Positions 1 through 25,170 of a stretch of 64,000 nt of DNA are shown one piece after another. Under the pieces are notes generated by a model. That model saw only the letters and a list, made by a program, of their open reading frames with translations, was not told the origin of the DNA and ran no database searches. Origin of the DNA: a phage. The stretch lies in the NCBI GenBank assembly GCA_038450185.1, contig GCA_038450185.1_4765.1; one strand, 5' to 3'. The translations under genes were made by a program, and so were the position numbers. Within the stretch, counting starts at the first letter, position 1. Each line of letters opens with the position of its first letter.

Positions 1-83
1 GTTCCATCTTCCAGTAATGCAGTACCGATTTCGTTAATGCGGTCATAAGTTACGTCGGTAATGATGATTTCGATGTTAGCCAT
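1..83 (-). CDS. hypothetical protein, N-terminal part only (gene runs past window start)
   Basis: ATG at 83 on minus strand with AGGAG SD; begins MANIEIIITDV; lies downstream of promoter cassette 120-148. Confidence 0.4.
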   Translation of the reverse strand, partial: MANIEIIITDVTYDRINEIGTALLEDG

Positions 84-119
84 TTGATACTCCTTAGTAG
101 TTCGTTTCGGTATGTGTGC

Positions 120-148
120 ATTATAGGGGATCACCGATCCCCTGTCAA
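120..148 (-). promoter_or_regulatory. sigma70-type early promoter cassette (TTGACA-17-TATAAT), palindromic spacer
   Basis: Minus strand reads TTGACA GGGGATCGGTGATCCCC TATAAT; coordinates span the -10 to -35 hexamers. Confidence 0.6.
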
Positions 149-155
149 CAACTTT

Positions 156-674
156 TTAGTTATTTTTTAATTGTTCATCTTGCAATAATGCAATCACATG
201 CTGGCGATGTTCTTCCGATTGAGGTACACCGAAAAAGTTTGTTTTGTAGAAATACTCTAATCGGTCTTCTCGTGTGCTCTCTTCCATCATGATCGCGGGT
301 AGTCCGAGATTTCGGAAACGTCGCTTTTCTGCTGGCGTAAAATCACTGTAATACAACATAGAATCATCATTACAAGCAATGCTAAACTCATCCTTCATAA
401 AGGAGAATATTGCGTTTAAACGCTGTTTACCGTCCACGATTTCGATCTCATAGCGAGAGCCATCATCAATCTTAGCCATTGCGATAGCACCAACCGGAAA
501 ATCATTAATCAGGTTTTCGATAAACATACGTTTGTTTTCGGTGTCCCATACTAAAGGACGCTGATAATCTGGGTTCATGTTGATATAGCCATCTTCTAAC
601 CATGCTTCGTAAACAGAGATGACAAAGTTTTTAGTATTGGTATAGTAACGGCGTTTAGGCGTTAAACGGTTCAT
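156..674 (-). CDS. DUF262 / ParB-like (GmrS N-terminal type) domain protein
   Basis: ORF track 156..710 trimmed to ATG at 674 with AGGAG SD; motifs DYQRPLVWD, FIENLINDFPVGAI, IVDGKQRL. Confidence 0.5.
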   Translation of the reverse strand: MNRLTPKRRYYTNTKNFVISVYEAWLEDGYINMNPDYQRPLVWDTENKRMFIENLINDFPVGAIAMAKIDDGSRYEIEIVDGKQRLNAIFSFMKDEFSIACNDDSMLYYSDFTPAEKRRFRNLGLPAIMMEESTREDRLEYFYKTNFFGVPQSEEHRQHVIALLQDEQLKNN

Positions 675-675
675 G

Positions 676-1008
676 TTATAGTCTCCTGAATGGATCATCA
701 CGTAAATCAATATCTTTTAAGAACTCATCCCATGAATGGCGGATATTGTTCTTAATTCTCCAGATGAGCGCAGGGATTGAACGCTCTCCCATCTGGAAGT
801 ATGGATCATATGATCCGTATGCCCAATATGCTACTACAATTCCACAATCAGAGCAATAGTATTCTATTTCACTTGCTGGCGACCAAAGTCCATCAATATG
901 ATCGGTGATCTTGCTTTCGATGTTATGGCTATGGCAATCAGGGCAACGGATGCAATGACCTTGTTTGTCGTAATTTGACGTTAGAGAATACTTAAACAAT
1001 CTCATCAT
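676..1008 (-). CDS. small zinc-finger protein (CxxCPDCH ... CSDC)
   Basis: ORF track; ATG at 1008 with AAGGA SD; stop overlaps start of downstream DUF262 gene. Confidence 0.5.
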   Translation of the reverse strand: MMRLFKYSLTSNYDKQGHCIRCPDCHSHNIESKITDHIDGLWSPASEIEYYCSDCGIVVAYWAYGSYDPYFQMGERSIPALIWRIKNNIRHSWDEFLKDIDLRDDPFRRL

Positions 1009-1721
1009 AGATCCTTATTGGCTTCAAATACTGCCTTTGCGAATCCTCGCGGGGTAAGCGACCTGATAGTCTTTGTTCTGGTTCCTTTCCCGCCTAGCTT
1101 AGAATGCTGTTTACTGTACCCTTTATTAATCTGCAAAGGTTTCTTTTCTGGCATTATAAAGCCTTGTCCGGTCCATAAGCAAGTCTTTTTTGGGTACATA
1201 TCACGGGCGGCAATATACTCAGGAAACGTAGGATGCTTATCATCTTCCGGCAAATAACCGCCATATTCCCACGGATGGAACATATAATCAGGCTTACGCC
1301 ACATGCTAGAGATAACGCTTACAGGATTCTCTATCATGTAGGGAACTCCTAGCCATTCACCCAAATAAGCGGTTATTTTAGCTGCCCGTACATCATGAAC
1401 TTGAATCAATGGTCCTTGTCCTCGTTTCTTTCGTTCAAAGTGCGCAGCGCCACTAACAGCTAAATTGGTGCACGGTGGGAATGCAAAGATAATATCCGGT
1501 TTCCCCCATTCAAGGTCCATTGCTCTTTCCAGCCAATTCAAATCAATCCATGTGTTTACATAAGTAATGTTTGGATGTTCAAATCGGGTATTATACTTTT
1601 TGTATGTGCCGTGATCGCCATCGTCAGCATTAAAGCAGATCACCTTATGACCTTCTTTAGCCCATTCTAGCCCCATTATCCCCGATCCGTCAAAGTTGCA
1701 GAATATTAATTTTTGTTTCAT
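1005..1721 (-). CDS. putative compact DNA (cytosine-5)-methyltransferase-like protein
   Basis: ORF track; motif I-like FCNFDGSG, motif IV-like FAFPPCTNLAVSG (catalytic Cys), motif VI-like MIENPV; only about 238 aa, so target-recognition region is short. Confidence 0.4.
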   Translation of the reverse strand: MKQKLIFCNFDGSGIMGLEWAKEGHKVICFNADDGDHGTYKKYNTRFEHPNITYVNTWIDLNWLERAMDLEWGKPDIIFAFPPCTNLAVSGAAHFERKKRGQGPLIQVHDVRAAKITAYLGEWLGVPYMIENPVSVISSMWRKPDYMFHPWEYGGYLPEDDKHPTFPEYIAARDMYPKKTCLWTGQGFIMPEKKPLQINKGYSKQHSKLGGKGTRTKTIRSLTPRGFAKAVFEANKDL

Positions 1722-1963
1722 ATACGCCCCTTTAATCCAACACAGATTTTAGAAGGTTCTTTGCCGTGCCACATTAAGTAAAGTCCGTTAATGCGGCCTT
1801 GTTTTGTATATGATTCTTTTCTGATCTTCTTATAGTGTCGTGTTTCCTCAACTGATTGTTTAGAATACCAATCATAAAGGAAGAGGCACAAAGGCCAACC
1901 ATTAGCGGCCTTAATGCAGTTATTAAGAAATTCCTTATTGCGTTTAATTAATTTTCTTTTCAC
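1718..1963 (-). CDS. hypothetical basic protein
   Basis: ORF track; apparent GTG start at 1963 overlapping upstream stop (GTGA). Confidence 0.3.
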   Translation of the reverse strand: MKRKLIKRNKEFLNNCIKAANGWPLCLFLYDWYSKQSVEETRHYKKIRKESYTKQGRINGLYLMWHGKEPSKICVGLKGRI

Positions 1964-2211
1964 GCTGCCCCCATTGGTTTGATAGTAACAGAATCTAAAA
2001 GACCTTTGTTAGCCAGTTCGCGGCAAGTTTTCAGATCCGCAACTTCCCAGCCAGCCGCAATCAGGTTGTCAATGAGGCTGTTAGCAACTTCTTCGCTCAT
2101 GAAAGAGCACTGTTTGCCGATGGTGTAGCGTACACGCTGTAATTTCAGTTTACGGAAGCCTTTAACGTTCAGGTCTTTAGCGATTTTCTTTGCGGTTTCG
2201 ATGTTAGCCAT
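1960..2211 (-). CDS. hypothetical early protein
   Basis: ORF track; ATG at 2211, GGAGAATCAAA-type RBS, promoter cassette directly upstream. Confidence 0.5.
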   Translation of the reverse strand: MANIETAKKIAKDLNVKGFRKLKLQRVRYTIGKQCSFMSEEVANSLIDNLIAAGWEVADLKTCRELANKGLLDSVTIKPMGAA

Positions 2212-2251
2212 TGTTTGATTCTCCTAAGTGGTATCTCGTCTTGATGGTTGT

Positions 2252-2280
2252 ATTGTAGGGGAGTTATCCTCCCCTGTCAA
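2252..2280 (-). promoter_or_regulatory. early promoter cassette (TTGACA-17-TACAAT), palindromic spacer
   Basis: Spacer GGGGAGGATAACTCCCC on minus strand. Confidence 0.55.
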
Positions 2281-2294
2281 CACTTTTTATAAAA

Positions 2295-2462
2295 TTATTT
2301 GTTAATTTCTGGTGCGTTGCTCGGATAGTAACCTTCTTTAACACCCAGATATTTTGCAACCATCCCTACAATCTTCTGTGCTACTACAATGTCAAATTTC
2401 AGATAATCTTCGCCGTGGGTTTCAATGATATATGCTTCACATGCTGCTTTAGTCTCGAACAT
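2295..2462 (-). CDS. hypothetical small protein (paralogue of 6038..6205)
   Basis: ORF track 2295..2528 trimmed to ATG at 2462 (MFETKAACEAY); near-identical to 6038..6205. Confidence 0.5.
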   Translation of the reverse strand: MFETKAACEAYIIETHGEDYLKFDIVVAQKIVGMVAKYLGVKEGYYPSNAPEINK

Positions 2463-2495
2463 TTTGATTCTCCTATTTCGTTTCGTTATGTGTGT

Positions 2496-2525
2496 ATTAT
2501 AGGGGATCGGTGATCCCCTTGTCAA
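2496..2525 (-). promoter_or_regulatory. early promoter cassette (TTGACA-18-TATAAT), palindromic spacer
   Basis: Spacer contains GGGGATCACCGATCCCC. Confidence 0.55.
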
Positions 2526-2540
2526 CAACTTTTTTTAAAA

Positions 2541-2822
2541 TTATTCGTGATTAGTTTCGATGTTGTGCATTTTGCACCAGTTCAGCCAGTCGCCCAGATC
2601 TTGATAGTTGATGCTTTTATCTGCTGCCATCGTTTTTGTCTTGATACCCATATGTGCGTTATGAGTAAGCATTTTTACAGTGAACTCGATTTTATCGCCT
2701 TTAGCTTTAACATCAACCAGTTTGGTCCACTGGCTACCAGCGCCGCGAATGTTCATACCAACGATGTTTCCGATGTATGCTTCTTTGTTTTTCAGGATTT
2801 CGGTTGCTTTGATGAATTTCAT
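2541..2822 (-). CDS. hypothetical early protein
   Basis: ORF track; ATG at 2822 with GGAG RBS; promoter cassette upstream. Confidence 0.5.
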   Translation of the reverse strand: MKFIKATEILKNKEAYIGNIVGMNIRGAGSQWTKLVDVKAKGDKIEFTVKMLTHNAHMGIKTKTMAADKSINYQDLGDWLNWCKMHNIETNHE

Positions 2823-2855
2823 TTTTGGTTCTCCAGTTCGTTTCGGTATGGGTGT

Positions 2856-2884
2856 ATTATGCTATGTTCTTACTTTGGTGTCAA
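2856..2884 (-). promoter_or_regulatory. early promoter cassette (TTGACA-17-CATAAT)
   Basis: tgtcaa and attatg hexamers on plus strand at correct spacing upstream of gene starting 2822. Confidence 0.5.
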
Positions 2885-2892
2885 CAACTTTT

Positions 2893-3162
2893 TTAGATAT
2901 TTTCAGAAATAAATTTTAAAACTTGACGTAAATGTTTCTCATCTTTGATAGTCGCCGGAAGTTCTTCTTTTACTTCCTGTGCAAGATAGATATTTCCGTT
3001 CCAAGTGAAAGATCCGTCTTCGTTTACGCGATAGCTGAACATCCACTCGCAATCATTTTCGATTTCATATACACACAGAAGGGTGTAATCGTTAAAGCTA
3101 GTGATTTCAAGGTCGAAGCCGTGACGTTTTGCAAAGTTGGTAGTGGTTTTAGTCAGAGCCAT
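2893..3162 (-). CDS. hypothetical early protein
   Basis: ORF track; ATG at 3162; promoter cassette upstream. Confidence 0.5.
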   Translation of the reverse strand: MALTKTTTNFAKRHGFDLEITSFNDYTLLCVYEIENDCEWMFSYRVNEDGSFTWNGNIYLAQEVKEELPATIKDEKHLRQVLKFISENI

Positions 3163-3202
3163 TGTTTGATTCTCCTAAGTGGTATCTCGTTTCGATGTGT
3201 GT

Positions 3203-3231
3203 ATTATGCTATAGGCCGGATCTGGTGTCAA
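3203..3231 (-). promoter_or_regulatory. early promoter cassette (TTGACA-17-CATAAT)
   Basis: Same gtattatgctat...gtgtcaa module as 2856 and 3691. Confidence 0.5.
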
Positions 3232-3240
3232 TGCCTTTTT

Positions 3241-3266
3241 TAAAAAAGCCGACACTAAGGTCGGCA
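3241..3266 (-). terminator. intrinsic terminator
   Basis: GCCGAC-actaag-GTCGGC hairpin flanked by A-run (T-run on minus strand). Confidence 0.55.
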
Positions 3267-3270
3267 CATT

Positions 3271-3525
3271 TTAAAAATTCTTGCTATATATGCAAGCCTC
3301 ATAATCTAGAGGATGACCGCCAATCCTACCCGGCTTAATATTCCAACCGCATCGATATTTGCTGACCATGCTAACAGTTTCGGTTCTTAGAGCATTTCTT
3401 TGCAAATCATACCCCCTAAATTCTTGTCTATAAGGACAGTCCGCTTTGCAAGTTGGCGGTTCTACGTCATTTAGAGGGTCGGAAGCAGTTGGCTTTATTA
3501 TCAATTCTTTGTTTGCAATAATCAT
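3271..3525 (-). CDS. hypothetical protein (start uncertain)
   Basis: ORF track 3271..3588 starts on TTG; first in-frame ATG at 3525 overlaps 3467..3658 in another frame; a short 32-aa product from ATG 3369 is also possible. Confidence 0.25.
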   Translation of the reverse strand: MIIANKELIIKPTASDPLNDVEPPTCKADCPYRQEFRGYDLQRNALRTETVSMVSKYRCGWNIKPGRIGGHPLDYEACIYSKNF

Positions 3526-3658
3526 AAGCACATCCCATTGAAGACAATTTAACATCTTCGCAATAAGTGTTGAATCCGTCAAATACAATCACTTCGTATT
3601 TGACTCCATCAGCGATAGCTTTTACTTTATACCATCCATGCTTGTATAAAATCTTCAT
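3467..3658 (-). CDS. hypothetical small Cys-rich protein
   Basis: ORF track; ATG at 3658; promoter cassette upstream. Confidence 0.5.
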   Translation of the reverse strand: MKILYKHGWYKVKAIADGVKYEVIVFDGFNTYCEDVKLSSMGCAYDYCKQRIDNKANCFRPSK

Positions 3659-3690
3659 CTTTATTTCCTCAATCTCGTTTCGATGGGTGT

Positions 3691-3719
3691 ATTATGCTAT
3701 AGTCGTGATCTGGTGTCAA
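3691..3719 (-). promoter_or_regulatory. early promoter cassette (TTGACA-17-CATAAT)
   Basis: Hexamers at correct spacing upstream of gene starting 3658. Confidence 0.5.
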
Positions 3720-3743
3720 TGCCTTTTTTAAAATTTTATGCAA

Positions 3744-3768
3744 TAAAAAAGCCGACACTAAGGTCGGC
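3744..3768 (-). terminator. intrinsic terminator (second copy of the 3241 element)
   Basis: Same GCCGACACTAAGGTCGGC hairpin preceded by AAAAAA. Confidence 0.55.
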
Positions 3769-3776
3769 TAATGAAA

Positions 3777-4082
3777 TCATTTAGACAAATAATCATTCTG
3801 TGCAATCCGGTCAGCATGTTCCGGCGTTACGTCAATTGCAATCACTTTAACGCGCGCTTTCTTGACTGAATTTTCTCGTAGCCAGTGCGTGTGACCGTGC
3901 ACATTTTTATACTTTGATGCTTTTTCGAAAGTACGGATCGGACCTGGGTAATCAGCGTAAAGGATCTCTAGGTCTTCTGTGATGTAAAAATATACATCAT
4001 AATTACTGTTCTCTAGTTTAAGCAGAGACTTTCGGAACATTGGGAGATTTTCGCGGGTAAATTCAAAGATATTATCTTTCAT
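3777..4082 (-). CDS. hypothetical protein, HxHxHW family paralogue
   Basis: ORF track 3777..4229 trimmed to ATG 4082 with GAGGA SD; motifs YITEDLEILY, HGHTHW, VIAIDV. Confidence 0.5.
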   Translation of the reverse strand: MKDNIFEFTRENLPMFRKSLLKLENSNYDVYFYITEDLEILYADYPGPIRTFEKASKYKNVHGHTHWLRENSVKKARVKVIAIDVTPEHADRIAQNDYLSK

Positions 4083-4131
4083 AGTATTATCCTCAATAGT
4101 TGGATGAAAAGGGGGCTTAACGCCCCGTATA

Positions 4132-4419
4132 TTAAAACAGTCCTTCCTGTACACCGTAGTAGAGTTCATCGCTGATAATTTCATTAATGCGACGGTGTGC
4201 ATATTCCTGATTTGCGAAGTTGTCAGCAAGTTCTACTTTAGTTTCGCCGTCATGAGTCCATTTAGTGATAACTTTACCATCTGCAAATTTGAAGTTGAAC
4301 TCTTTAGCTACTGCATCGCGTACCAGACGTGCAAACTTATTGTTGCGGATTGCATTGTCGGTTTCGTGTGCAGCGTGAGCGAATTTGTTAACTTTCAGGG
4401 TGATAGTAATGTATGCCAT
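4132..4419 (-). CDS. hypothetical early protein
   Basis: ORF track; ATG at 4419; promoter cassette upstream. Confidence 0.5.
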   Translation of the reverse strand: MAYITITLKVNKFAHAAHETDNAIRNNKFARLVRDAVAKEFNFKFADGKVITKWTHDGETKVELADNFANQEYAHRRINEIISDELYYGVQEGLF

Positions 4420-4465
4420 AATTTGATTCTCCTAGTTAGAAAGTGTATCTCGTTTCGATGGGTGT

Positions 4466-4494
4466 ATTATGCTATACACCCAACCTCATGTCAA
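4466..4494 (-). promoter_or_regulatory. early promoter cassette (TTGACA-17-CATAAT)
   Basis: Hexamers at correct spacing upstream of gene starting 4419. Confidence 0.5.
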
Positions 4495-4500
4495 CACTTT

Positions 4501-4779
4501 TTATAAAATAATTTTTTGATATTTTTCTATGATGTTCGTGTAATTCACATCAACCGCTAGCACCGTTGCTTCGAATCCACCGTTTAGCCAATGGCTATGA
4601 TCGTGATCGTGAAAGAAACCTAGACCAGTACGAAGACCTTCTTTATATTCGGCGCGTACATTTAGATCATCATCGATAAACAGATAAAACCATGAATTTT
4701 TACTAGGATTGATGATACAACCTTTCAGATTCGGGAGAATATCACGACTAAGAATAAACTTATCACCTACTTTGAACAT
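4501..4779 (-). CDS. hypothetical protein, HxHxHW family paralogue
   Basis: ORF track 4501..4869 trimmed to ATG 4779 with GTGAGGA SD; motifs FIDDDLNV, HDHDHSHW, VLAVDV. Confidence 0.5.
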   Translation of the reverse strand: MFKVGDKFILSRDILPNLKGCIINPSKNSWFYLFIDDDLNVRAEYKEGLRTGLGFFHDHDHSHWLNGGFEATVLAVDVNYTNIIEKYQKIIL

Positions 4780-4793
4780 AATATTTTCCTCAC

Positions 4794-5102
4794 TTATAAA
4801 GTTTGACCGTTGTTTTTCGCGTAATGCTGAATGCGTGCTTGATCTGCTTCCGATGGTGATAGATTCCATGCAACCACTACAACTTCTGAAGCATCGTCAT
4901 CCGTTTCTGATACCCAATGATTGTGATTCATACAGTTATTTGCTATCGAGTGAGCAAATGATTTCATCACTGGAGACGTATAATCATAGTAACGGATTTT
5001 CAGATTTTCATCAACATACAAGTAGATCGTATACGGCTTATATTCAGTAACCAATAACAGACAGTTACGCAATTCTGGGAAAATCTTTTTAGTTAATTTC
5101 AT
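4794..5102 (-). CDS. hypothetical protein, HxHxHW family paralogue
   Basis: ORF track; motifs YVDENLKIRYYD, NHNHW, VVVAW. Confidence 0.5.
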   Translation of the reverse strand: MKLTKKIFPELRNCLLLVTEYKPYTIYLYVDENLKIRYYDYTSPVMKSFAHSIANNCMNHNHWVSETDDDASEVVVVAWNLSPSEADQARIQHYAKNNGQTL

Positions 5103-5304
5103 ATTCTAGTTCTCCGTAATACACGGTAATCCATTTTTCTTCATACTTTGTATCTTTCCAGCACACAATCCCGTTTACTGTGCAATCTTTGGAATTGACG
5201 AATGATTCATATTGTTCTGCATCTTCCATCATTTCATGAGCGGTCTTTTCATCGAATATATCGCAGATCGCTTTATATGCTCGATAATCTTTAAATTTGC
5301 TCAT
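5089..5304 (-). CDS. hypothetical small protein (tandem paralogue of 5307..5516)
   Basis: ORF track 5089..5316 trimmed to ATG 5304; shares MSKFKDY..AY N-terminus with neighbour. Confidence 0.4.
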   Translation of the reverse strand: MSKFKDYRAYKAICDIFDEKTAHEMMEDAEQYESFVNSKDCTVNGIVCWKDTKYEEKWITVYYGELEYEIN

Positions 5305-5306
5305 AA

Positions 5307-5516
5307 TTAACACCACTCAAGAGTTTTTGAAAACACATCTATCCATTGTTGAGTATATGCGGTTTCTTTCCATGACACAATACCAGTCGAATAATGGTTT
5401 TTGTTTCCAGAAAAGGACGGGCATTTTGATGCATCTTCCATCATCTTTTCGGCGAACTCTGGTGCGTATACTCGCAGGATCTGTTGATATGCTTTATAGT
5501 CTTTAAATTTGCTCAT
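5307..5516 (-). CDS. hypothetical small protein (tandem paralogue of 5089..5304)
   Basis: ORF track; ATG at 5516. Confidence 0.45.
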   Translation of the reverse strand: MSKFKDYKAYQQILRVYAPEFAEKMMEDASKCPSFSGNKNHYSTGIVSWKETAYTQQWIDVFSKTLEWC

Positions 5517-5781
5517 AATCGTTAACTACCTTATCAGCTTCTTTTATTGTTTTTACATCAACTGCGATAATCCGTAAAGGTTCGTCGAAGGTCCACCAAT
5601 GATCGTGAATATCAGCTTGTGATTTATCACCAAAGGAATCACGAATATCATTTTTACATTTATAGCTAATGTGACCGTCATAGTCAACATAAAGGTAATT
5701 ATCGAAAATCGGCGTTTTTAAGATCATACCGAAAAATCTTTCTTTGTGTGTCTTATCCAGTGTTGCAGTAATTCGCATCAT
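5503..5781 (-). CDS. hypothetical protein, HxHxHW family paralogue
   Basis: ORF track; ATG 5781 with AGAGGA SD; motifs YVDYDGHISY, HDHWW, IIAVDV. Confidence 0.5.
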   Translation of the reverse strand: MMRITATLDKTHKERFFGMILKTPIFDNYLYVDYDGHISYKCKNDIRDSFGDKSQADIHDHWWTFDEPLRIIAVDVKTIKEADKVVNDYEQI

Positions 5782-5793
5782 AATATATTCCTC

Positions 5794-5973
5794 TTAGAAA
5801 GGGATGGTCATTTCTTGAGCTTGTACATTCTCGTTAGGATTAAACTTCATCCAACCGATATTGTCTACCAGCATATGTACATTTTTATCATATCCTACGT
5901 GAGTAGTCAACACTAAATGTGCTTTACCTTCAACGATGATTTCCATGTACTTCTGAACTTCGATAGCTTTCAT
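5794..5973 (-). CDS. hypothetical 59-aa protein (below ORF-track size cutoff)
   Basis: Hand translation: ATG at 5973 after GGAGAATCAAA RBS, MKAIEVQKYMEIIVEG..., stop at 5794-5796; promoter cassette upstream. Confidence 0.4.
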   Translation of the reverse strand: MKAIEVQKYMEIIVEGKAHLVLTTHVGYDKNVHMLVDNIGWMKFNPNENVQAQEMTIPF

Positions 5974-6005
5974 TTTGATTCTCCGTTTGTTGTCTTGATG
6001 GGAGT

Positions 6006-6034
6006 ATATTACTACTCCCTTTAATCATTGTCAA
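6006..6034 (-). promoter_or_regulatory. early promoter cassette (TTGACA-17-TAATAT) with palindrome across -10
   Basis: GGGAGTATATTACTACTCCC palindrome overlaps the -10 box. Confidence 0.45.
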
Positions 6035-6037
6035 CTA

Positions 6038-6205
6038 TTATTTGTTAATTTCCGGTGCGTTGCTCGGATAGTAACCTTCTTTAACACCCAGATATTTCGC
6101 AACCATTCCGGTGATCTTCTGTGCTACTACGATATCGAATTTCAGGTAGTCTTCACCGTGGTTTGCTACAATGTATGCTTCGCATTCTGCTTTAGTCTGG
6201 AACAT
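6038..6205 (-). CDS. hypothetical small protein (paralogue of 2295..2462)
   Basis: ORF track 6038..6241 trimmed to ATG 6205 (MFQTKAECEAY). Confidence 0.5.
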   Translation of the reverse strand: MFQTKAECEAYIVANHGEDYLKFDIVVAQKITGMVAKYLGVKEGYYPSNAPEINK

Positions 6206-6239
6206 TTTTGATTCTCCTATATCTCGTTGGTATGTGTGC

Positions 6240-6268
6240 ATTATAGGGGATCACCGATCCCCTGTCAA
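6240..6268 (-). promoter_or_regulatory. early promoter cassette (TTGACA-17-TATAAT), palindromic spacer
   Basis: About 45 bp identical to the cassette at 111-155. Confidence 0.6.
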
Positions 6269-6276
6269 CAACTTTT

Positions 6277-6579
6277 TTATTCTTCGTCTTTATCTTTATA
6301 TGCGTATTTCATAAATTTGTCTGCTACTTCATCGGCATGTTCCGATTCTACGTCGGATTCGAGAACAATAGCAAGATCGGTTTCGTCGTTTCCGTCATAC
6401 CAATGATTATGAGTATCGTTTTCTTCGATATAGAATGAGTCATTTGGAGTTGGACGACAATATACATCTAAATTCTCATCGATGTAAAAGATCCAATCTT
6501 CGTAAAGAATAACCGTATTAGCCAGATTTTTATTGCCTTCAACGAAAGGTTCAGCTACAAATAGCTTAGTTTGTTCCAT
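6277..6579 (-). CDS. hypothetical protein, HxHxHW family paralogue
   Basis: ORF track 6277..6636 trimmed to ATG 6579 with GAGGAAAA SD; motifs YIDENLDVY, THNHW, LAIVLESDV. Confidence 0.5.
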   Translation of the reverse strand: MEQTKLFVAEPFVEGNKNLANTVILYEDWIFYIDENLDVYCRPTPNDSFYIEENDTHNHWYDGNDETDLAIVLESDVESEHADEVADKFMKYAYKDKDEE

Positions 6580-6595
6580 AATATTTTCCTCAAAA

Positions 6596-6787
6596 TTATA
6601 CAGCTTCGTAAACTTCCCAATGTTCAGCGCCAGCACGCTTAACGAAAAGGTTTTCTTTGATGTTATTCATAAACGTCTGGATGGATTTAATGCGGTTGGA
6701 AGGTTTCCAGTCTTCGTTAGCATTTCGGCGATACATTATAACATTACCAGATCGCTTATATTCAGCAACCATTTTAAGACCACACAT
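6596..6787 (-). CDS. hypothetical small protein
   Basis: ORF track; ATG at 6787 with GAGGA SD. Confidence 0.45.
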   Translation of the reverse strand: MCGLKMVAEYKRSGNVIMYRRNANEDWKPSNRIKSIQTFMNNIKENLFVKRAGAEHWEVYEAV

Positions 6788-6843
6788 AATATTATCCTCA
6801 ATTTGTGGGAGAGTATTACCCTCCAGATTATTGTTATACTACA

Positions 6844-7146
6844 TTACGCAAAATGGCGTGTCAATGCTTCTTTTGCTGTTCCGCTAAGATTCTCGATCTC
6901 TCCTGGCATAACATCAACCGCCAGAACTTCTACAACATCCTCTGATCCTAACCAGTGAGTATGACCTTTGTAGAACTTGATATCCCATTTATCGCTATCG
7001 CTAGCCCACCACACATCACCGTCGATAAAGTTGATGTAAAGCACACTACGACACATTGAATTAATTACTTTCAATACTGCGCCTTTCATATCTTCCACGG
7101 TATGGTCTTCCATTTTGAAGACCTCACCTACCTGAACTTTTGCCAT
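6844..7146 (-). CDS. hypothetical protein, HxHxHW family paralogue
   Basis: ORF track; motifs FIDGDVWW, KGHTHW, VLAVDV. Confidence 0.5.
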   Translation of the reverse strand: MAKVQVGEVFKMEDHTVEDMKGAVLKVINSMCRSVLYINFIDGDVWWASDSDKWDIKFYKGHTHWLGSEDVVEVLAVDVMPGEIENLSGTAKEALTRHFA

Positions 7147-7163
7147 TTAGTCACCTCTCTTTA

Positions 7164-7343
7164 TTACATAACAATCACGCCAGCCGTTGAAAGTTGATGT
7201 TTCAACTGAGCATTTTCTGCTACTGTCAAATCAATGATTTCTTGTGACGCTGCAATCATATAGCCATTGGTGATATTGTTTTTCATCAGTTCAATGGTTT
7301 CTTCGTTGTAGCGGATTTTAGCGATGATTTCGTTGAAGTTCAT
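7164..7343 (-). CDS. hypothetical small protein
   Basis: ORF track 7164..7445 trimmed to ATG 7343 (MNFNEIIAKI) with GGAGAATCAA RBS; promoter cassette upstream. Confidence 0.45.
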   Translation of the reverse strand: MNFNEIIAKIRYNEETIELMKNNITNGYMIAASQEIIDLTVAENAQLKHQLSTAGVIVM

Positions 7344-7377
7344 AATTGATTCTCCTAGTTCGTTTCGGTATGTGTGT

Positions 7378-7406
7378 AGTATAGGGGATCGGTGATCCCC
7401 TGTCAA
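7378..7406 (-). promoter_or_regulatory. early promoter cassette (TTGACA-17-TATACT), palindromic spacer
   Basis: Spacer GGGGATCACCGATCCCC on minus strand. Confidence 0.55.
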
Positions 7407-7419
7407 CAACTTTTTTGAA

Positions 7420-7896
7420 TTATTTTTCTTTATGCTCGCGCTCATACTTTTCGAAATAAAATTCTACTGGCTGGTCGTGGATTGACAGTAAGCCAAAGCG
7501 TTTAGCCGCTCGCAATCCCATATTGCGCTGAATGTACTTCTGGAAGTTCTCGCGTATACACTTACGCCAGTATTCTAAGCCCATACAGCTTTTATAAAGA
7601 TTGCATTGCACACATGCCGGATTCATGTTATCAAGTATATCATGCTCCGGTTTATGCATTCCTACAACCTTATACTTCCACGATCCATCATCATTACGGG
7701 CAATTCGTCCATTTTCATCATAGACTACCTTTGAGCGTCGCAATACTGGTTTGATGTGGTCTGCGTGCCAGCGATCCCCTAGTTCCTCGCCACAATAGGC
7801 ACAACGTCCACCATATTTCATTTTCAGGATCTGGCGTTGCTCTTTCTTTGACAATTTTTTAGGTTTAGGGGCTTTCGCCCCTTCATTATCACACAT
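7420..7896 (-). CDS. HNH endonuclease domain protein
   Basis: ORF track; CAYCGEEL...HADHIKP...CVQCNLYKS zinc-binding HNH signature; overlaps ligase gene by a few nt. Confidence 0.55.
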   Translation of the reverse strand: MCDNEGAKAPKPKKLSKKEQRQILKMKYGGRCAYCGEELGDRWHADHIKPVLRRSKVVYDENGRIARNDDGSWKYKVVGMHKPEHDILDNMNPACVQCNLYKSCMGLEYWRKCIRENFQKYIQRNMGLRAAKRFGLLSIHDQPVEFYFEKYEREHKEK

Positions 7897-14802: not shown

Positions 14803-15201
14803 TTAACTTTCCAGAATATCGCGAGCTTCGTTACGCTCCTTGATGATTTTCAGGACAAATTCCAGTTTTTCTTTGTTTAGTGTTCCGTTTTCCATTGCTT
14901 CTTTGACGGTAAACACTCCTCCACCTTGCCCGTATACAGTGACAGTGATTTCACCTAACATCGTGGTGTGAAAACCGCCAATTTTCGGTGATTCGAAAGA
15001 AACAATTACCTCGCGGACAGTATTGCCGTCGTTGATTTCTGAGAGGGTAATGTCGTTTTTGTAGGCGGTTGCTTTAACCATACGGATCAGCATAGTCTGA
15101 TCTGGGGAGATGGTCATTTTGTCCATTGCATGTTGCAATGCAGCGTAACCGAAAACTTTAACGAAGTCCAGAACGTCTTTGCGAGTTTGAAAATTAATCA
15201 T
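14803..15201 (-). CDS. hypothetical protein
   Basis: ORF track; ATG 15201 with AAGGAG SD; promoter cassette upstream. Confidence 0.45.
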   Translation of the reverse strand: MINFQTRKDVLDFVKVFGYAALQHAMDKMTISPDQTMLIRMVKATAYKNDITLSEINDGNTVREVIVSFESPKIGGFHTTMLGEITVTVYGQGGGVFTVKEAMENGTLNKEKLEFVLKIIKERNEARDILES

Positions 15202-15234
15202 CTTGATACTCCTTAGTTGTTTTGGTATGGGAGT

Positions 15235-15263
15235 ATCTTACTACTCCCGTGATATGCTGTCAA
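15235..15263 (-). promoter_or_regulatory. early promoter cassette (TTGACA-17-TAAGAT) with palindrome across -10
   Basis: GGGAGTATCTTACTACTCCC palindrome. Confidence 0.45.
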
Positions 15264-15271
15264 CTGCTTTT

Positions 15272-15421
15272 TTATGCAACCGCAAACATCAACATTTGAA
15301 CATTCTTGGCTGTCTGGCTTTCAAAGTTCTGACATTCTTTGATAATGTCCTCTACTTTCTCGCCGGAGATCTCCGCGTAAGTTTCGATTGCCATTTTCAG
15401 TACCGCGTCAAAGTTGTTCAT
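15272..15421 (-). CDS. hypothetical 49-aa protein (below ORF-track size cutoff)
   Basis: Hand translation: ATG 15421 after GGAGAATCAAA RBS, MNNFDAVLKMAIETYAEISGEKV..., stop 15272-15274. Confidence 0.35.
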   Translation of the reverse strand: MNNFDAVLKMAIETYAEISGEKVEDIIKECQNFESQTAKNVQMLMFAVA

Positions 15422-15459
15422 TTGATTCTCCTTAAAGTGTATTTCGTTTCGATGGGGGT

Positions 15460-15488
15460 ATATTACTACCCCCGTTTCATGCTGTCAA
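15460..15488 (-). promoter_or_regulatory. early promoter cassette (TTGACA-17-TAATAT) with palindrome across -10
   Basis: GGGGGTATATTACTACCCCC palindrome. Confidence 0.45.
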
Positions 15489-15707
15489 CTACTTTTTAAT
15501 GACAAGTTCGAATTTTGCTACCTTGCGTCCTCGTTTATTGAAAGCAACCCACGGACGGTTTTCAATGTAGAACAATTCTTCGCCAATAATGAATACTGGC
15601 TGATTGTAAAGGCGACCCATCAGGTCACGCTGGCGAATGGTAGTAGATTCGTATACTTCTCCCACTACAAAGTGTTTGCTGATAGAGTCGGTGCAAGTAA
15701 ATTTCAT
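15489..15707 (-). CDS. hypothetical protein
   Basis: ORF track; ATG 15707; promoter cassette upstream. Confidence 0.45.
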   Translation of the reverse strand: MKFTCTDSISKHFVVGEVYESTTIRQRDLMGRLYNQPVFIIGEELFYIENRPWVAFNKRGRKVAKFELVIKK

Positions 15708-15740
15708 TTTGATTCTCCTTTGTTTCGTTTCGATGGGGGT

Positions 15741-15769
15741 ATATTACTACCCCCGTTATTCAGTGTCAA
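15741..15769 (-). promoter_or_regulatory. early promoter cassette (TTGACA-17-TAATAT) with palindrome across -10
   Basis: Identical core to cassette at 15460. Confidence 0.45.
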
Positions 15770-15776
15770 CTACTTT

Positions 15777-15995
15777 TTACTTGTTGTATTCATTCCACCA
15801 TTGGGTTAGCTTATCAATTATTTTTGTGTTTCTATCCAACTTCTCCCACCGTTTTCTAGGGTTTATCAACCGGAATAGGTAAGGTGTACTTGTTAAGTGA
15901 ACTCGGTCAATGTAGTGATTGATGTACTGCTTTTCGATTCTAAGTTTCATCTTTTTACGATGAAAATATGCAATGACTTGTTCTTCTGTTTCCAT
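15777..15995 (-). CDS. hypothetical protein
   Basis: ORF track; ATG 15995; promoter cassette upstream. Confidence 0.45.
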   Translation of the reverse strand: METEEQVIAYFHRKKMKLRIEKQYINHYIDRVHLTSTPYLFRLINPRKRWEKLDRNTKIIDKLTQWWNEYNK

Positions 15996-16019
15996 ATGTT
16001 CCTCCGTTTCGATGTGCGT

Positions 16020-16048
16020 ATTATGCTATGGCAAGATCTGATTGTCAA
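16020..16048 (-). promoter_or_regulatory. early promoter cassette (TTGACA-17-CATAAT)
   Basis: Hexamers at correct spacing upstream of gene starting 15995. Confidence 0.5.
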
Positions 16049-16057
16049 CACCCAATA

Positions 16058-16083
16058 ACAAAAAAGTCGCCACTATGGGCGAC
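16058..16083 (-). terminator. intrinsic terminator
   Basis: GTCGCC-actatg-GGCGAC hairpin flanked by AAAAAA (T-run on minus). Confidence 0.55.
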
Positions 16084-17938: not shown

Positions 17939-18106
17939 TTATCCTACAACCTCAAAACATTTATCATCGGGAAGAATAACCCATTCTACGCCGTATTCAT
18001 CCTCAACGTAGTAGCAAGTCCCATCATATCGAGCCTCATATACATTACCGACAACAAAGCTATCAGCTAGCTCAAAATCTACAGCAACACATTTTAATTT
18101 GGTCAT
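17939..18106 (-). CDS. hypothetical small protein
   Basis: ORF track 17939..18169 trimmed to ATG 18106 (MTKLKCVAV); promoter cassette upstream. Confidence 0.4.
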   Translation of the reverse strand: MTKLKCVAVDFELADSFVVGNVYEARYDGTCYYVEDEYGVEWVILPDDKCFEVVG

Positions 18107-18137
18107 AATAAAATCCTCACTTGTTTTTGATGGTTGT

Positions 18138-18166
18138 ATTATAGCGGGGATTTCTCCCCGCGTCAA
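18138..18166 (-). promoter_or_regulatory. early promoter cassette (TTGACG-17-TATAAT), palindromic spacer
   Basis: Spacer GCGGGGAGAAATCCCCGC. Confidence 0.5.
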
Positions 18167-18174
18167 CACTTATT

Positions 18175-20418
18175 TTACAGCTTGCAAGATGAGCACTCGC
18201 TAGCGTCTTCCGTACCATCTGCACCGTCGCGAACGTTCGCATAATACAGGGTTTTCAGACCGTAATATTGAGCAAACAACATATCATCTAACACATCAGC
18301 AATATCGACTTTACCAGTCTTATAAGTGCTTGGATCATAGGATGTATTGGAACTAATCGCCTGATCTACAAACTTCTGCATGATCGCTGCCAGTGTCAGA
18401 TAGGGCTTGTTACCTTTCTTGATCAGTGTCCAAAGCAGGTCAATAACATCAGCATTATTCTCTACGTTCGGAATAACCTGATTAAATTGCCCTTCTTTCG
18501 ATCCTTTAACCGATACAATCCCGCGAGGCGGTTCAATACCGTTTGTGCTGTTAGATACCTGAGAAGACGACTCACAAGGCATCAGAGCCGAAAGCGTACT
18601 ATTACGAATGCCATATTTTTTCAGGTCTTCGCGCAGTTCTTCCCAATCCATCTCATACACAGGATCAACCAGTTCATCTACTGTCTTTTTGTACCAGTCG
18701 ATAGGCAGTTCACCGCGTCCATAACGTGTTTCGTGCATCAGTTCGCAAGCACCCTTCTCTTTAGCCAGTTGCACACTAGCCTTAATCAGAGCATATTGCA
18801 AGCGTTCAAACGTTTTATGCGTAAACTCGTTAGCGTCTTCATATGTGAAGAAATTATCCGCTAGATATGACGCAAAGTTAGTAACACCAACACCCAGAGA
18901 GCGACGTTTTTTGGCTGTCAGAGCTTGTTCTACAGGATAATCCTGATAATCTAACAGGTTGTCAAGTGCACGCACCATAACCATAGCAATGCGTTCTACT
19001 TCTTCCATGTTTTCGATATCGAAATTACCTAAAACATATGCTGCCAAAGTACATAGGCTGATCTCTGAATCATCACGCCCCATCGGTTTAGTAGGCAGAG
19101 CAATTTCACAACACAGGTTAGATTGTTTAATTGGTGCTACATTACGAATAAACGCCCCGTGATTGTTCATGTTGTCTGTGAATGTTGGGTAGATTCGACC
19201 AGTGTTAAAACGTTCAATTGCCACCGCTAAAAACAGGTCTTCGGCTTTAACACGAGTTTTACGAACACTCGGATCTTTTTCCAGTTTTTCGTAAAGCTGG
19301 CGGAAACCTTCCTCATCTCGGAAGTACAGATCCCACAACAAGCCACCTGCAACATCTGGACTAAACAGAGTAATGTAATCCCGTTTAAGGAATCGCTCTA
19401 CCATCAGGTTATTAATCTGTACGCCGTAGTCAAGATGGCGAATGCGGTTATCTTCCACGCCCTTATTGTTCTTTAACACAATCAGACTTTCAAACTCTAA
19501 ATGCCACATTGGGTAATAGAGAGTCGCCGCCCCGCCACGAATACCGCCTTGTGAGCATGACTTAACGGCAGTCTGAAAATGTTTCCAGAATGGGATAACG
19601 CCAGTATGACGAACTTCACCATGCCCGATCTTAGATCCTTCCGCGCGAATCATGCCAGCGTTGATACCGATACCAGCACGCTTGCTAATATACTTGATGA
19701 TTGCATTTGCTGTTTCGTTGATGCCCTGCAATGAGTCATCACTTTCAATCACCACACACGAACTAAATTGTCGTGTTGGAGTACGCACACCCGCCATAAT
19801 CGGAGTAGGCAGAGAGATTTGCTTATTCGCAACAGCATTATAAAAATCAATCACATGTTCAAGTCGATTTTCTGTCTCTTCTTGATGCAAACACATACCA
19901 ATCAGCATATACGCAAATTGCGGTGTTTCGATGATTTTCTTAGTGCTGCGATCCTGAACAAGATATTTCTCTTTTAACTGCATCGCACCAGCATAGGTCA
20001 TTTTAAAATCAAGTTTATGGTCGATGAATTTCTCCAGATATTCCACTTCTTCACGGGAATATTTTTGCAGAATTTCGCGATCATATTTTCCGGTTGCAAT
20101 ATTACGCTCAATATGGCTATAAAAATCAATAGGTTGGAATTGACCGTATACTGATTTACGAAGCGCGAACATTGCAAGGTTACTTGCTACATATTGATAA
20201 TCAGGCGTTTCTACAGTAATGTTATCTGCGGCGACCTTAATCAATACTTTCTGGATATCATTGGTAGACATACCTTCTGTCAGAAGTGGTTCAACCATAT
20301 CAAACAATTCATATGGATCAACGTTATGACCTTCGGCTGCCGCTTCCAGAATTTTCATTACTTTTTCTTTTTCAAACGGAACAGTCAGACCGGAAGACTT
20401 AACAACATTTTTAATCAT
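18175..20418 (-). CDS. nrdA: ribonucleotide reductase large subunit
   Basis: ORF track; 747 aa with ATP-cone N-terminus and C-terminal CSSCKL-type tail typical of class Ia NrdA. Confidence 0.9.
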   Translation of the reverse strand: MIKNVVKSSGLTVPFEKEKVMKILEAAAEGHNVDPYELFDMVEPLLTEGMSTNDIQKVLIKVAADNITVETPDYQYVASNLAMFALRKSVYGQFQPIDFYSHIERNIATGKYDREILQKYSREEVEYLEKFIDHKLDFKMTYAGAMQLKEKYLVQDRSTKKIIETPQFAYMLIGMCLHQEETENRLEHVIDFYNAVANKQISLPTPIMAGVRTPTRQFSSCVVIESDDSLQGINETANAIIKYISKRAGIGINAGMIRAEGSKIGHGEVRHTGVIPFWKHFQTAVKSCSQGGIRGGAATLYYPMWHLEFESLIVLKNNKGVEDNRIRHLDYGVQINNLMVERFLKRDYITLFSPDVAGGLLWDLYFRDEEGFRQLYEKLEKDPSVRKTRVKAEDLFLAVAIERFNTGRIYPTFTDNMNNHGAFIRNVAPIKQSNLCCEIALPTKPMGRDDSEISLCTLAAYVLGNFDIENMEEVERIAMVMVRALDNLLDYQDYPVEQALTAKKRRSLGVGVTNFASYLADNFFTYEDANEFTHKTFERLQYALIKASVQLAKEKGACELMHETRYGRGELPIDWYKKTVDELVDPVYEMDWEELREDLKKYGIRNSTLSALMPCESSSQVSNSTNGIEPPRGIVSVKGSKEGQFNQVIPNVENNADVIDLLWTLIKKGNKPYLTLAAIMQKFVDQAISSNTSYDPSTYKTGKVDIADVLDDMLFAQYYGLKTLYYANVRDGADGTEDASECSSCKL

Positions 20419-22636: not shown

Positions 22637-22966
22637 TCAAATCAGTTTGAAATAGTTTTCGTTTACATTTTCTTCTGTGATTGCTGTCTTAAATTCTTGA
22701 CCGTTATCCGGTGTGATGAAATAACGGTCAGAATAATCACGAAAACGTTTTAAGTGAGATACACCAACATTAACACCATTTTCCCAAAAACGAAAGGTAA
22801 TCATTTTTGGTTCATATCGATAGTCGCTGGTTAACACAGTACCATCACCGCGACGGGCTTCATAAACCGTAATACATTCACGATTGGCGGCTTTTAAGCA
22901 TTCTTCAATAGTGCCGCACGAGATAATACTTACTTTTTCATCTACGATTTGTTCTACAGTCCACAT
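22637..22966 (-). CDS. hypothetical protein
   Basis: ORF track 22637..22999 trimmed to ATG 22966 with AGAGGA SD. Confidence 0.4.
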   Translation of the reverse strand: MWTVEQIVDEKVSIISCGTIEECLKAANRECITVYEARRGDGTVLTSDYRYEPKMITFRFWENGVNVGVSHLKRFRDYSDRYFITPDNGQEFKTAITEENVNENYFKLI

Positions 22967-22997
22967 AATATAATCCTCTCTTTGTTTCGATATGTGC

Positions 22998-23025
22998 ATT
23001 ATACACTATTGCGTTACGCTGTCAA
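22998..23025 (-). promoter_or_regulatory. early promoter (TTGACA-16-TATAAT)
   Basis: Hexamers upstream of gene starting 22966. Confidence 0.5.
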
Positions 23026-24030: not shown

Positions 24031-24060
24031 AATTTTATCCTCCGTTGTTTCTATGGGTGC

Positions 24061-24089
24061 ATTATACATTACCACATCAGCATGTCAAT
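24061..24089 (-). promoter_or_regulatory. early promoter (TTGACA-17-TATAAT)
   Basis: Hexamers upstream of gene starting 24030. Confidence 0.5.
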
Positions 24090-24114
24090 ACATTTTCATA
24101 AAATTTTATGCAAT

Positions 24115-24138
24115 AAAAAAGCCTCCCCGAAGGAAGGC
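24115..24138 (-). terminator. intrinsic terminator after gene 32
   Basis: GCCTCCC-cgaa-GGAAGGC hairpin preceded by AAAAAA. Confidence 0.55.
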
Positions 24139-24149
24139 TTTAAAATTCA

Positions 24150-25124: not shown

Positions 25125-25170
25125 AATTATACCTCTTTATACATTAACTATTGATTAATTTACGTTTTAT

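Follow-up and report, generated by a model that had tools for sequence, protein, structure and literature searches.

The 64,000-nucleotide stretch of phage DNA analysed here (NCBI GenBank assembly GCA_038450185.1, contig GCA_038450185.1_4765.1; hereafter the window) belongs to the genome of a Krischvirus, i.e., an RB49-like member of the Straboviridae, and contains numerous copies of a cassette in which a promoter, a leader and a ribosome-binding site precede small genes of the minus strand. These repeated cassettes are very probably the promoter-early stem-loops (PeSLs) of RB49-type phages, which are used for the gain, loss and exchange of genes. All the sequence-level features of PeSLs occur in them, namely an A/T-rich upstream tract, a promoter, a stem-loop of variable position, a Shine-Dalgarno sequence followed by ATG, an intergenic location in hyperplastic regions and an association with insertions and deletions (indels). 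For the same genus and locus, this class of elements has already been described in print, including copy number, subclasses and role. Arbiol et al. 2010 (PMC2839356) defined the PeSLs in the same hyperplastic region of RB49, counted 51 copies in RB49 and 52 in phi1, distinguished five subclasses according to the position of the stem-loop, and tested PeSL193/192, PeSL206/205 and PeSL211/210. The present analysis adds a replication with newer genomes, together with a module mosaic, a conserved leader and loop flips that are not discussed in Arbiol et al. 2010. A preliminary description of the window had pointed to a match with the promoter-early stem-loop cassettes of RB49-like phages and considered them as probably a known class of elements; lineage, synteny, anatomy and indel association all support this reading, but the suggestion that copy number and sub-families are worth documenting has lost most of its weight, both being available in print (PMC2839356).

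Lineage and Synteny of the Window

The window shares 92-98% identity with RB49 and other Krischvirus genomes. For the region 1-8000, which holds the densest cluster of cassettes, the overall identity to phages Brandy, JK32 and RB49 amounts to 94-96%, with single aligned blocks ranging from 92 to 98%, and the other two cassette clusters also match Krischvirus. No record identical to the window occurred in the phage record collection that was searched. Positions 1-7420 are syntenic with ORF185-ORF209 (ORF, open reading frame) of RB49, located between alt and the HNH/ligase genes. With respect to RB49, the isolate lacks ORF186, ORF192 and ORF210/211 and possesses an extra gene at 23014-24030.

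The correspondence extends to individual elements. The cassette at 6203-6282 and PeSL206/205 of RB49 (in the ORF206/205 intergenic region) share an identical stretch of 72 nt that runs from AAAGTTGTTGACA to the ATG. A promoter activity of about 13,000 Miller units was reported for PeSL206/205 (PMC2839356), so that promoter strength is taken here from the literature on an identical sequence. Similarly, the hairpin of the tested PeSL211/210 is of the spacer type, like that of several copies of the window. The early-promoter consensus of RB49 agrees with mapped 5' ends of early transcripts, as stated in the part of Nolan 2006 (PMC1524935) that cites Desplats 2002; within the scope of that statement, the transcript mapping proposed as a check in the preliminary description has in effect already been done for RB49.

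Detection and Anatomy of the Cassettes

The cassettes stand out by simple pattern searches. Compared to dinucleotide shuffles, AAAAGTTGTTGACA with up to 3 mismatches gave 43 matches for 13.2 expected, nearly all on the minus strand, GTTGACA-N17-TANNNT gave 39 for 6.0 expected, and TAGGAGAATCAAA with up to 2 mismatches gave 15 for 2.7 expected, all on the minus strand. The pattern AAAAAGTTGNTTGACA, which carries an extra spacer base, had no match in the window, and the motif is contiguous. An nhmmer profile was built from 24 copies of the window, and its scores are bimodal: the 24 seeds, which match their own model by construction, reach 30-51 bits, the non-seed copy 60504 (cassettes are named by the position of their -35 start) reaches 20.7 bits, and everything else remains below 10 bits. 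These 25 copies are all on the minus strand, and each of the strong ones lies directly upstream of an ORF. The estimate of at least 25 minus-strand cassettes made in the preliminary description agrees with these 24 strong copies and one weaker copy, and copies were present at each of the places where it had located further ones; the identity of 111-155 to 6231-6275 that it had noticed forms part of a longer identical block of 49 bp (109-157 = 6229-6277). Once 16 related loci are included, all of the 145 profile matches lie on the coding strand, immediately before an ORF, and represent 101 unique copies. Four looser promoter/stem-loop sites (6864, 25199, 51271 and 57730) have their hairpin or terminator arranged otherwise. 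Among the sigma-70 promoter matches in 1-8000, the best 9 are all cassettes. Rfam gave no match at the gathering threshold for the whole window and none at E<=1 for 1-7600, and a scan of IMG/VR for the spacer-hairpin promoter retrieved only two contigs, of about 150-165 kb, which is the size of a Krischvirus genome.

The cassette unit measures about 80-100 bp. Read along the minus strand in 1-7600, it consists of an A-tract, GTTG, TTGACA, 17 nt, a TATAAT-like hexamer, a C-rich stretch leading to CAT, a leader, a ribosome site and the ATG, and the consensus of the 24 copies reads aaaaatttt.AAAAAgttG-TTGACA-N17-tAtaAT-ACaCcC-AT. The -35 box is TTGACA in 20 of the 24 copies and TTGACG/T in the other 4, and the spacer measures 17 nt in 21 copies and 16 or 18 nt in three. 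Depending on the copy, the -10 box reads TATAAT, CATAAT, TAATAT or TAAGAT, with TACAAT, TATACT, TATTAT and AATAAT as single variants. The CAT located 12-14 nt past the start of the -10 box is invariant or nearly so, and we infer that transcription is likely to start at its A, behind a C-rich -3 to -1 region such as that reported for RB49. The leader, 24-46 nt long and 50% A, is CGAAACGA-like, of either the AUCGAAACGA or the AUACCGAAACGAAC type, and is followed by (T/A)AGGAGAATCAAA and the ATG. GGAG occurs in the ribosome site of 19 of the 24 copies (GGAGAAUCAAA), the others having GAGG or a weak site. It is plausible that the GGAG sites are targets of the RegB endoribonuclease, since RB49 possesses a diverged regB gene.

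Another translation-initiation motif, GAGGAWWWWATTATG, was found 16 times for 0.2 expected matches, always on the minus strand, e.g., at 4777-4791, 6577-6591, 6785-6799, 18104-18118, 22964-22978, 41976-41990 and 62651-62665. It serves internal operon genes as well as cassettes 18166, 23025, 24088 and 42041, so that the window has two families of ribosome sites. In addition, 9 of 25 cassettes (148, 2525, 3231, 3719, 6268, 7406, 16048, 42264 and 50902), some of them devoid of any hairpin, have a GATC in the spacer, at position 4-7 (or 5-8) counted from TTGACA. GATC is of ordinary frequency genome-wide (359 observed for 341 expected), and the pattern in the spacer is likely explained by shared descent.

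The cassettes head short operons. The preliminary description had placed one before most small early genes, which is an overstatement: about one quarter of the genes of the window, and about 45% of those of the densest span, directly follow a cassette. Thus, 24 of about 97 predicted minus-strand genes are located right behind a cassette in the window and 9 of 21 in 1-7400 according to an automatic count, a hand count for 1-7400 giving 10-11 of about 23; the remaining genes lie inside operons of 2-6 genes.

Hairpins and Terminators

About two in three copies contain a GC-rich hairpin, which is located in the spacer or overlaps the -10 box. Taking the looser sites into account, 7 hairpins of the window are located in the spacer, 9 overlap the -10 box, 5 copies have an upstream terminator, 2-3 (looser sites) have a downstream hairpin and four have none. 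The spacer hairpins of class C/C2 are GGGGATC-nnn-GATCCCC, GGGGAG-gataa-CTCCCC and GCGGGGA-gaaa-TCCCCGC. Two further classes overlap the -10 box: counting from index 0 at the first T of TTGACA, class A pairs 13-20 with 27-34 (GGGTGTAT/ATACACCC) and class B pairs 15-21 with 28-34 (GGGAGTA/TACTCCC). Among the 101 unique copies, stem pairing reaches 96-100% in register, versus 33-74% when shifted. Compensatory pairs occur at two positions of class A (TA/GC/AT and GC/AT) and at one of class B (AT/GC), and the RB49 ortholog of cassette 4494 has a compensated stem, GGGGATAT/ATATCCCC. The hairpins fold with -12 to -21 kcal/mol (z -1.7 to -5.0), and shuffled sequences fold at least as well as copies devoid of a hairpin, e.g., 2884 and 3719. 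A canonical terminator, made of a hairpin and a T run, lies 10-45 nt upstream of the -35 box in five copies without an internal hairpin (3231, 3719, 16048, 24088 and 43824), which correspond to the "upstream" PeSL subclass of PMC2839356.

The internal hairpins lie upstream of the predicted start and would consequently form only when RNA is read through from the upstream unit, in line with an insulating role. For terminator activity we rely on the literature on sequences of the same type: the stem-loop of PeSL211/210, which is of the spacer type, acted as a strong terminator and lowered downstream lacZ about as much as rrnB T1 (PMC2839356). Several observations weigh against the PeSL interpretation. 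Internal hairpins are missing from about one third of the unique copies, and copies 2884, 23025, 43119 and 57161 of the window lack both a hairpin and a nearby terminator. Downstream of the -10-overlap hairpins comes AUCGAAAC instead of a U run, so that these hairpins are not canonical intrinsic terminators, and the only stem-loop tested experimentally is of the spacer type (PeSL211/210, PMC2839356). We infer a terminator function for the -10-overlap hairpins, as for hairpins devoid of a U tract in general. Rather than terminating transcription, the hairpins might stabilise 3' ends or serve as processing sites in read-through RNA, or modulate the promoter at the DNA level through the structure of the spacer, a reading we regard as unlikely. 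It would account for the missing U tract, for the location of part of the -10 hexamer in the loop and for the tolerance of G-T pairs in the stems. The lacZ result obtained with the spacer type argues against it, as does the occurrence of canonical terminators at the equivalent place in hairpin-less copies, which suggests one common role. The mismatches in the stems are too few to separate RNA from DNA, G-T and A-C amounting to about 4 and 2 independent events, respectively, after removal of artefacts due to over-extended stems.

Two of the spacer-hairpin loops, GGT and ACC, are mutually reverse-complementary, and close relatives differ in which of them they carry at orthologous sites (6240-6268 and 7378-7406; JK32 and MIZ4). 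In MIZ4, the flipped loop arrives with the adjacent -10 module of another cassette, i.e., as a gene conversion patch, and the flip was consequently rejected as a proof of in situ inversion. At site 7406 of JK32, the loop alone differs, owing perhaps to its inversion in place or to a patch of very short length.

Recombination between Cassettes

The regions 1-9000, 13500-26500 and 39500-53000 were compared to 12 relatives by local BLAST and chained alignments. Twenty-three distinct indel or replacement events were distinguished; every end falls in a cassette in 13 of them and at least one end does so in 18. The link to modular gene shuffling advanced in the preliminary description is borne out in this respect, since alignment and comparison of the flanking genes put the ends of indels inside cassettes. 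At many junctions the alignments overlap by 25-94 bp of common cassette sequence, which is the signature of a crossover within a shared repeat. Altogether, 25 of 38 end points are located in cassettes, which represent 6.7% of the sequence (p = 1e-20); cassettes occur at 26 of 70 gene boundaries (37%), and the enrichment of end points holds with respect to these boundaries too (p = 3e-4).

Several deletions can be assigned to a pair of cassettes. The segment 157-2463 is missing from MIZ4 (148 x 2525, overlapping by 75 bp) and 2302-2463 from Brandy and JK32 (2280 x 2525); ECD7 lacks 3245-3672 (3231 x 3719), JSE lacks 15276-15410 (15263 x 15488), LF73P4 and JSE lack 23045-24027 (23025 x 24088), and Sf20 and FL15 lack 42055-42253 (42041 x 42264). 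RB49 (assembly OZ035808) and 011D4 have a 321-bp replacement between cassettes 23025 and 24088. Among the insertions, ORF192 is present in RB49 and MIZ6 at 2541-2545, cassette 2525 being the junction for this indel as well as for the MIZ4 and Brandy deletions; ORF210/211 is present in several phages at 7359-7427, cassette 7406 being the insertion point in RB49, ECD7, MIZ4 and MIZ6; and LF73P4 has insertions of 851 bp and 235 bp at cassettes 18166 and 43824, respectively.

The cassettes themselves are mosaics. Orthologous cassettes are chimeric among phages, and the same leader module occurs behind different hairpin classes. Cassette 148 is a chimera, its promoter half being unlike that of the orthologous RB49 cassette, with which it shares the gene and the leader; RB49, Brandy and MIZ6 have the -10-overlap type at this site because they kept ORF186. 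MIZ6 carries a hybrid cassette at site 2280.

Pure functional constraint, in which the copies resemble each other as optimised promoters and ribosome sites and indels end there for reasons of viability only, appears very improbable. The best-conserved positions are indeed the -35 box, the -10 box, CAT and GGAG, and selection for viability would likewise put the ends of indels at gene boundaries. The 49-bp perfect identity, however, spans the spacer and the discriminator, which sigma-70 does not read; hairpin and leader modules occur in differing combinations, orthologous sites hold different modules, alignments overlap by 25-94 bp through the cassette at the junctions, and end points exceed the share of gene boundaries occupied by cassettes. 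Moreover, mini-circles with crossovers inside PeSLs have been published (PMC2839356).

Some further observations speak against the PeSL interpretation. All ends lie outside cassettes in five of the 23 events. In JSE, a homing endonuclease has been inserted at 17750|17938; between nrdA and td, an insertion site (20435-20488) holds two methylase genes in 011D4; tandem small paralogs (55-aa genes) have undergone a 147-bp slip at 17916-17941; a single gene is cleanly deleted at 1720|1947; and JEP8 has a replaced stretch that is divergent (23950|25776). In addition, selection for viable phages also favours break points at gene boundaries, and the enrichment could in part reflect survivorship instead of a higher rate of recombination.

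As to the type of recombination, the crossover point varies from one event to another: it lies in the A-tract/-35 region for 148 x 2525 in MIZ4, and between the -10 box and the leader for 2280 x 2525 in Brandy and for the loss of ORF186. Such variable points indicate general homologous recombination and argue against a fixed site-specific exchange. The mini-circles sequenced from RB49 and phi1, on which we depend for the existence of circular products, result from crossovers of neighbouring PeSLs between the -10 box and the ATG (PMC2839356) and agree with homologous recombination. An integron-like, site-specific mobility, in which a dedicated recombinase or structure-specific nuclease recognises the G-rich stem-loop and moves units made of an ORF and its cassette, was the subject of a similar speculation by Arbiol et al. 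(PMC2839356), and the conserved GGGG...CCCC stems, the reverse-complementary loops alternating at orthologous sites and the published circular intermediates (PMC2839356) would accord with it. It seems extremely improbable, since the crossover points differ between 148 x 2525, 2280 x 2525 and the ORF186 loss, hairpin-less cassettes recombine as well (3231 x 3719 and 23025 x 24088), RB49 and phi1 have no known integrase, and one of the loop changes travels with its neighbouring -10 module, pointing to gene conversion.

Homologous recombination between PeSLs leads to the following scheme, in which the steps are proposed. Right after infection, the host RNA polymerase would fire the near-consensus sigma-70 promoters (TTGACA-N17-TATAAT/CATAAT/TAATAT, with a UP-like A-tract), and each cassette would drive one to six small genes, mostly orphans, as a short operon. 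The hairpin formed in read-through RNA may attenuate or terminate transcription, or protect the 3' end, thereby insulating neighbouring units. Since near-identical sequences of 60-100 bp recur between genes, all in one orientation, copies could undergo crossover by the T4-type recombination machinery, whereby whole gene units would be deleted, inserted, duplicated or replaced and the cassettes converted in patches. A more unusual scheme, in which the stem-loop is a signal for a cruciform- or hairpin-processing enzyme or a phage protein that actively mobilises units in an integron-like manner without an integrase, or in which the -10-overlap hairpins regulate rather than terminate, is considered highly unlikely; were active mobilisation true, the GGT/ACC loop flips would be footprints of hairpin processing.

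Comparison with Known Systems

The PeSLs of RB49 and phi1 (PMC2839356) share with the cassettes of the window the genus, the loci (RB49 ORF185-211 and other hyperplastic regions), the architecture and the association with indels of orphan genes. Nothing differs in kind, and the present isolate is distinguished by its own chimeric copies and its own set of indels. The PeSLs/PmSLs of PST/T4 and nt-1/KVP40 (Comeau et al. 2014, PMC4122927) also consist of a composite promoter, stem-loop and ribosome site repeated in hyperplastic regions beside indels; however, their promoters are of the TTTACW or TTGYVH type, their stems are A3-4G3-loop-C3T3-4 and AGNA-loop-TCNT, and the stem-loops of PST sit just upstream of the promoter (PMC4122927). 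They are analogues rather than sequence relatives. T4 early promoters resemble those of the cassettes by their use of the host sigma-70 RNA polymerase, their upstream A-rich element, their extended -35 flank and their C-rich -3 to -1 region. They differ at -33, where the RB49-type promoters have a G (GTTGACA versus GTTTAC in T4), which makes the RB49-type promoters a near-perfect match to the Escherichia coli consensus, and those of T4 have no long conserved cassette with G/C hairpins around them.

The morons of lambdoid phages (Hendrix et al. 2000) are likewise single accessory genes that have their own promoter and terminator and are inserted between other genes; they are devoid of conserved flanks and thought to be acquired by illegitimate recombination, whereas the cassette supplies the homology here. 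Integron cassettes (attC) are, in a similar way, small orphan-gene units bounded by hairpin-forming repeats and have circular intermediates, but the cassettes of the window possess their own promoters, variable crossover points and direct repeats rather than folded single-strand sites. Assignment to the attC sites was rejected, since the crossover varies and no integrase is known in RB49 or phi1 (the proteins of the window having been scanned in part). A mobile repeat of the MITE (miniature inverted-repeat transposable element) or REP (repetitive extragenic palindromic) type was also rejected, all 145 copies having one orientation and the internal hairpin being the only inverted repeat.

PeSLs represent one of the few concrete mechanisms proposed for the shuffling of accessory genes in large lytic phages, in which each gene is kept expressed and insulated. 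The published result, obtained with two genomes, was repeated here with a dozen newer Krischvirus genomes and gave the same answer, which confirms rather than extends it. In annotation, the cassettes can serve as markers of early transcription units and of the borders of exchangeable modules, e.g., the DUF262/C5-methyltransferase module (157-2463) and the CapR-repeat gene (23014-24030).

Catalogue of the Cassettes

The cassettes and related sites of the window are listed in Table 1.

Table 1. Cassettes and related promoter sites of the window, all on the minus strand, named by the position of the -35 start.
Cassette	Extent	Promoter	Hairpin or terminator	ATG	Remarks
148	81..162 (-)	-35 148-143; -10 125-120	spacer hairpin GGGGATCggtGATCCCC	83	47.7 bits
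2280	2209..2294 (-)	-10 TACAAT	spacer hairpin GGGGAGgataaCTCCCC	2211	fold z -3.6
2525	2460..2539 (-)	18-nt spacer	hairpin GGGGATCaccGATCCCC	2462	RB49 ORF191 homolog
2884	2820..2898 (-)	-10 CATAAT	none	2822	folding: no structure
3231	3160..3265 (-)		none internal; canonical terminator 3265-3248 + T6 just upstream of -35	3162	
3719	3656..3769 (-)		none internal; upstream terminator 3769-3750	3658	partner of 3231 in ECD7
4494	4417..4508 (-)		-10-overlap hairpin GGGTGTATagcataATACACCC	4419	z -2.4
6034	5971..6048 (-)		-10-overlap hairpin GGGAGTAgtaataTACTCCC	5973	z -3.4
6268	6203..6282 (-)		spacer hairpin GGGGATCggtGATCCCC	6205	51.1 bits
6864 (looser)	6785..6878 (-)	TTGACA-N17-TAGTAT	hairpin downstream of -10	6787	3 bits
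7406	7341..7420 (-)	-10 TATACT	spacer hairpin GGGGATCaccGATCCCC	7343	
15263	15199..15277 (-)		-10-overlap hairpin GGGAGTA/TACTCCC	15201	junction in JSE
15488	15419..15502 (-)		-10-overlap hairpin GGGGGTA/TACCCCC	15421	z -3.0
15769	15705..15783 (-)		-10-overlap hairpin GGGGGTA/TACCCCC	15707	junction in 011D4
16048	15993..16083 (-)		none internal; upstream terminator GTCGCCCATAGTGGCGAC + T6 (~16083-16066)	15995	
18166	18104..18180 (-)	-10 TATAAT	spacer hairpin GCGGGGAgaaaTCCCCGC	18106	GAGGA-type ribosome site; z -4.1
23025	22964..23039 (-)	16-nt spacer	no strong hairpin	22966	junction partner of 24088
24088	24028..24139 (-)	16-nt spacer	upstream terminator AGCCTTCCTTCGGGGAGGCT + T run	24030	
25199 (looser)	25122..25213 (-)	TTGACA-N17-TATAGT			upstream of gene 32; long leader; 4.8 bits
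42041	41976..42055 (-)		-10-overlap hairpin GGGAGTA/TACTCCC	41978	junctions in LF73P4, MIZ4, Sf20, FL15
42264	42202..42278 (-)		spacer hairpin GGGGATCtgcGATCCCC	42204	z -2.4
42806	42746..42820 (-)	-35 TTGACG	-10-overlap hairpin GGGAGTA/TACTCCC	42748	
43119	43054..43133 (-)	-35 TTGACG	left hairpin arm degenerate	43056	
43824	43762..43864 (-)	-35 TTGACT; -10 CATAAT	upstream terminator (~43864-43842 + T run)	43764	
50902	50838..50916 (-)		-10-overlap hairpin GGGGATAT/ATATCCCC	50840	weak ribosome site; z -2.0
51271 (looser)	51207..51285 (-)	TTGACA-N16-TATAAT	promoter within 13-bp hairpin + T run	51209	-21.3 kcal/mol; z -5.0
57161	57101..57175 (-)	-10 AATAAT	none	57103	31.6 bits
57730 (looser)	57666..57744 (-)	TTGACA-N17-TATTAT	terminator-like hairpin (57701-57678) + T run after promoter	57668	
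60504 (partial)	60470..60512 (-)	TTGACA-N17-TACACT-ACACCC			promoter part only; no ORF start found behind it; 20.7 bits (non-seed)

Genes Associated with the Cassettes and Other Loci

The plus strand contains a sole long block (28806-39369), made of ORFs of 1246, 379, 496, 971 and 218 aa which are presumably late tail-fibre genes. This block contains no full cassette, the best profile matches (9.2 and 3.5 bits) being partial and located inside the 971-aa plus-strand ORF.

The proteins led by cassettes are mostly orphans, 17 out of 20 having no Pfam match. Two of the larger units are exchanged as modules. The 2.3-kb module 157-2463, located between cassettes and wholly absent from MIZ4, comprises a DUF262 gene (according to the annotation of a relative), a zinc-finger-like gene, a C5-cytosine methyltransferase (FPPC and ENPV motifs recognised by eye) and two small ORFs. 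The 338-aa gene at 23014-24030 (-), between cassettes 23025 and 24088, contains three stretches of CapR homology domain according to Pfam, with weaker overlapping matches to a zinc finger (DUF4379, treble clef) and a zinc ribbon (PF21817, E = 9e-23), and is missing or replaced in RB49 (assembly OZ035808), LF73P4, JSE and 011D4.

Small paralogous proteins are also abundant. A repeated family of about 100 aa occupies 3777-7146 (-); its members 3777-4082, 4501-4779, 4794-5102 and 6844-7146 match by BLASTP, and 5503-5781 and 6277-6579 probably belong to the same family, as judged by eye from an H-x-H-W ... AVDV motif. A separate tandem pair of paralogs, 46% identical, is encoded at 5089-5307 and 5307-5516. 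The 55-aa paralogs at 2295-2462 and 6038-6205 (-), which are 89% identical and correspond to RB49 ORF191 and ORF205, each stand behind a spacer-hairpin cassette and look like the product of a duplication of the whole cassette-plus-gene unit. Finally, at an indel site that the cassettes do not account for, just upstream of cassette 51271 (51271-51303), FL15 has a homing endonuclease and LF73P4 an insertion of the same size.

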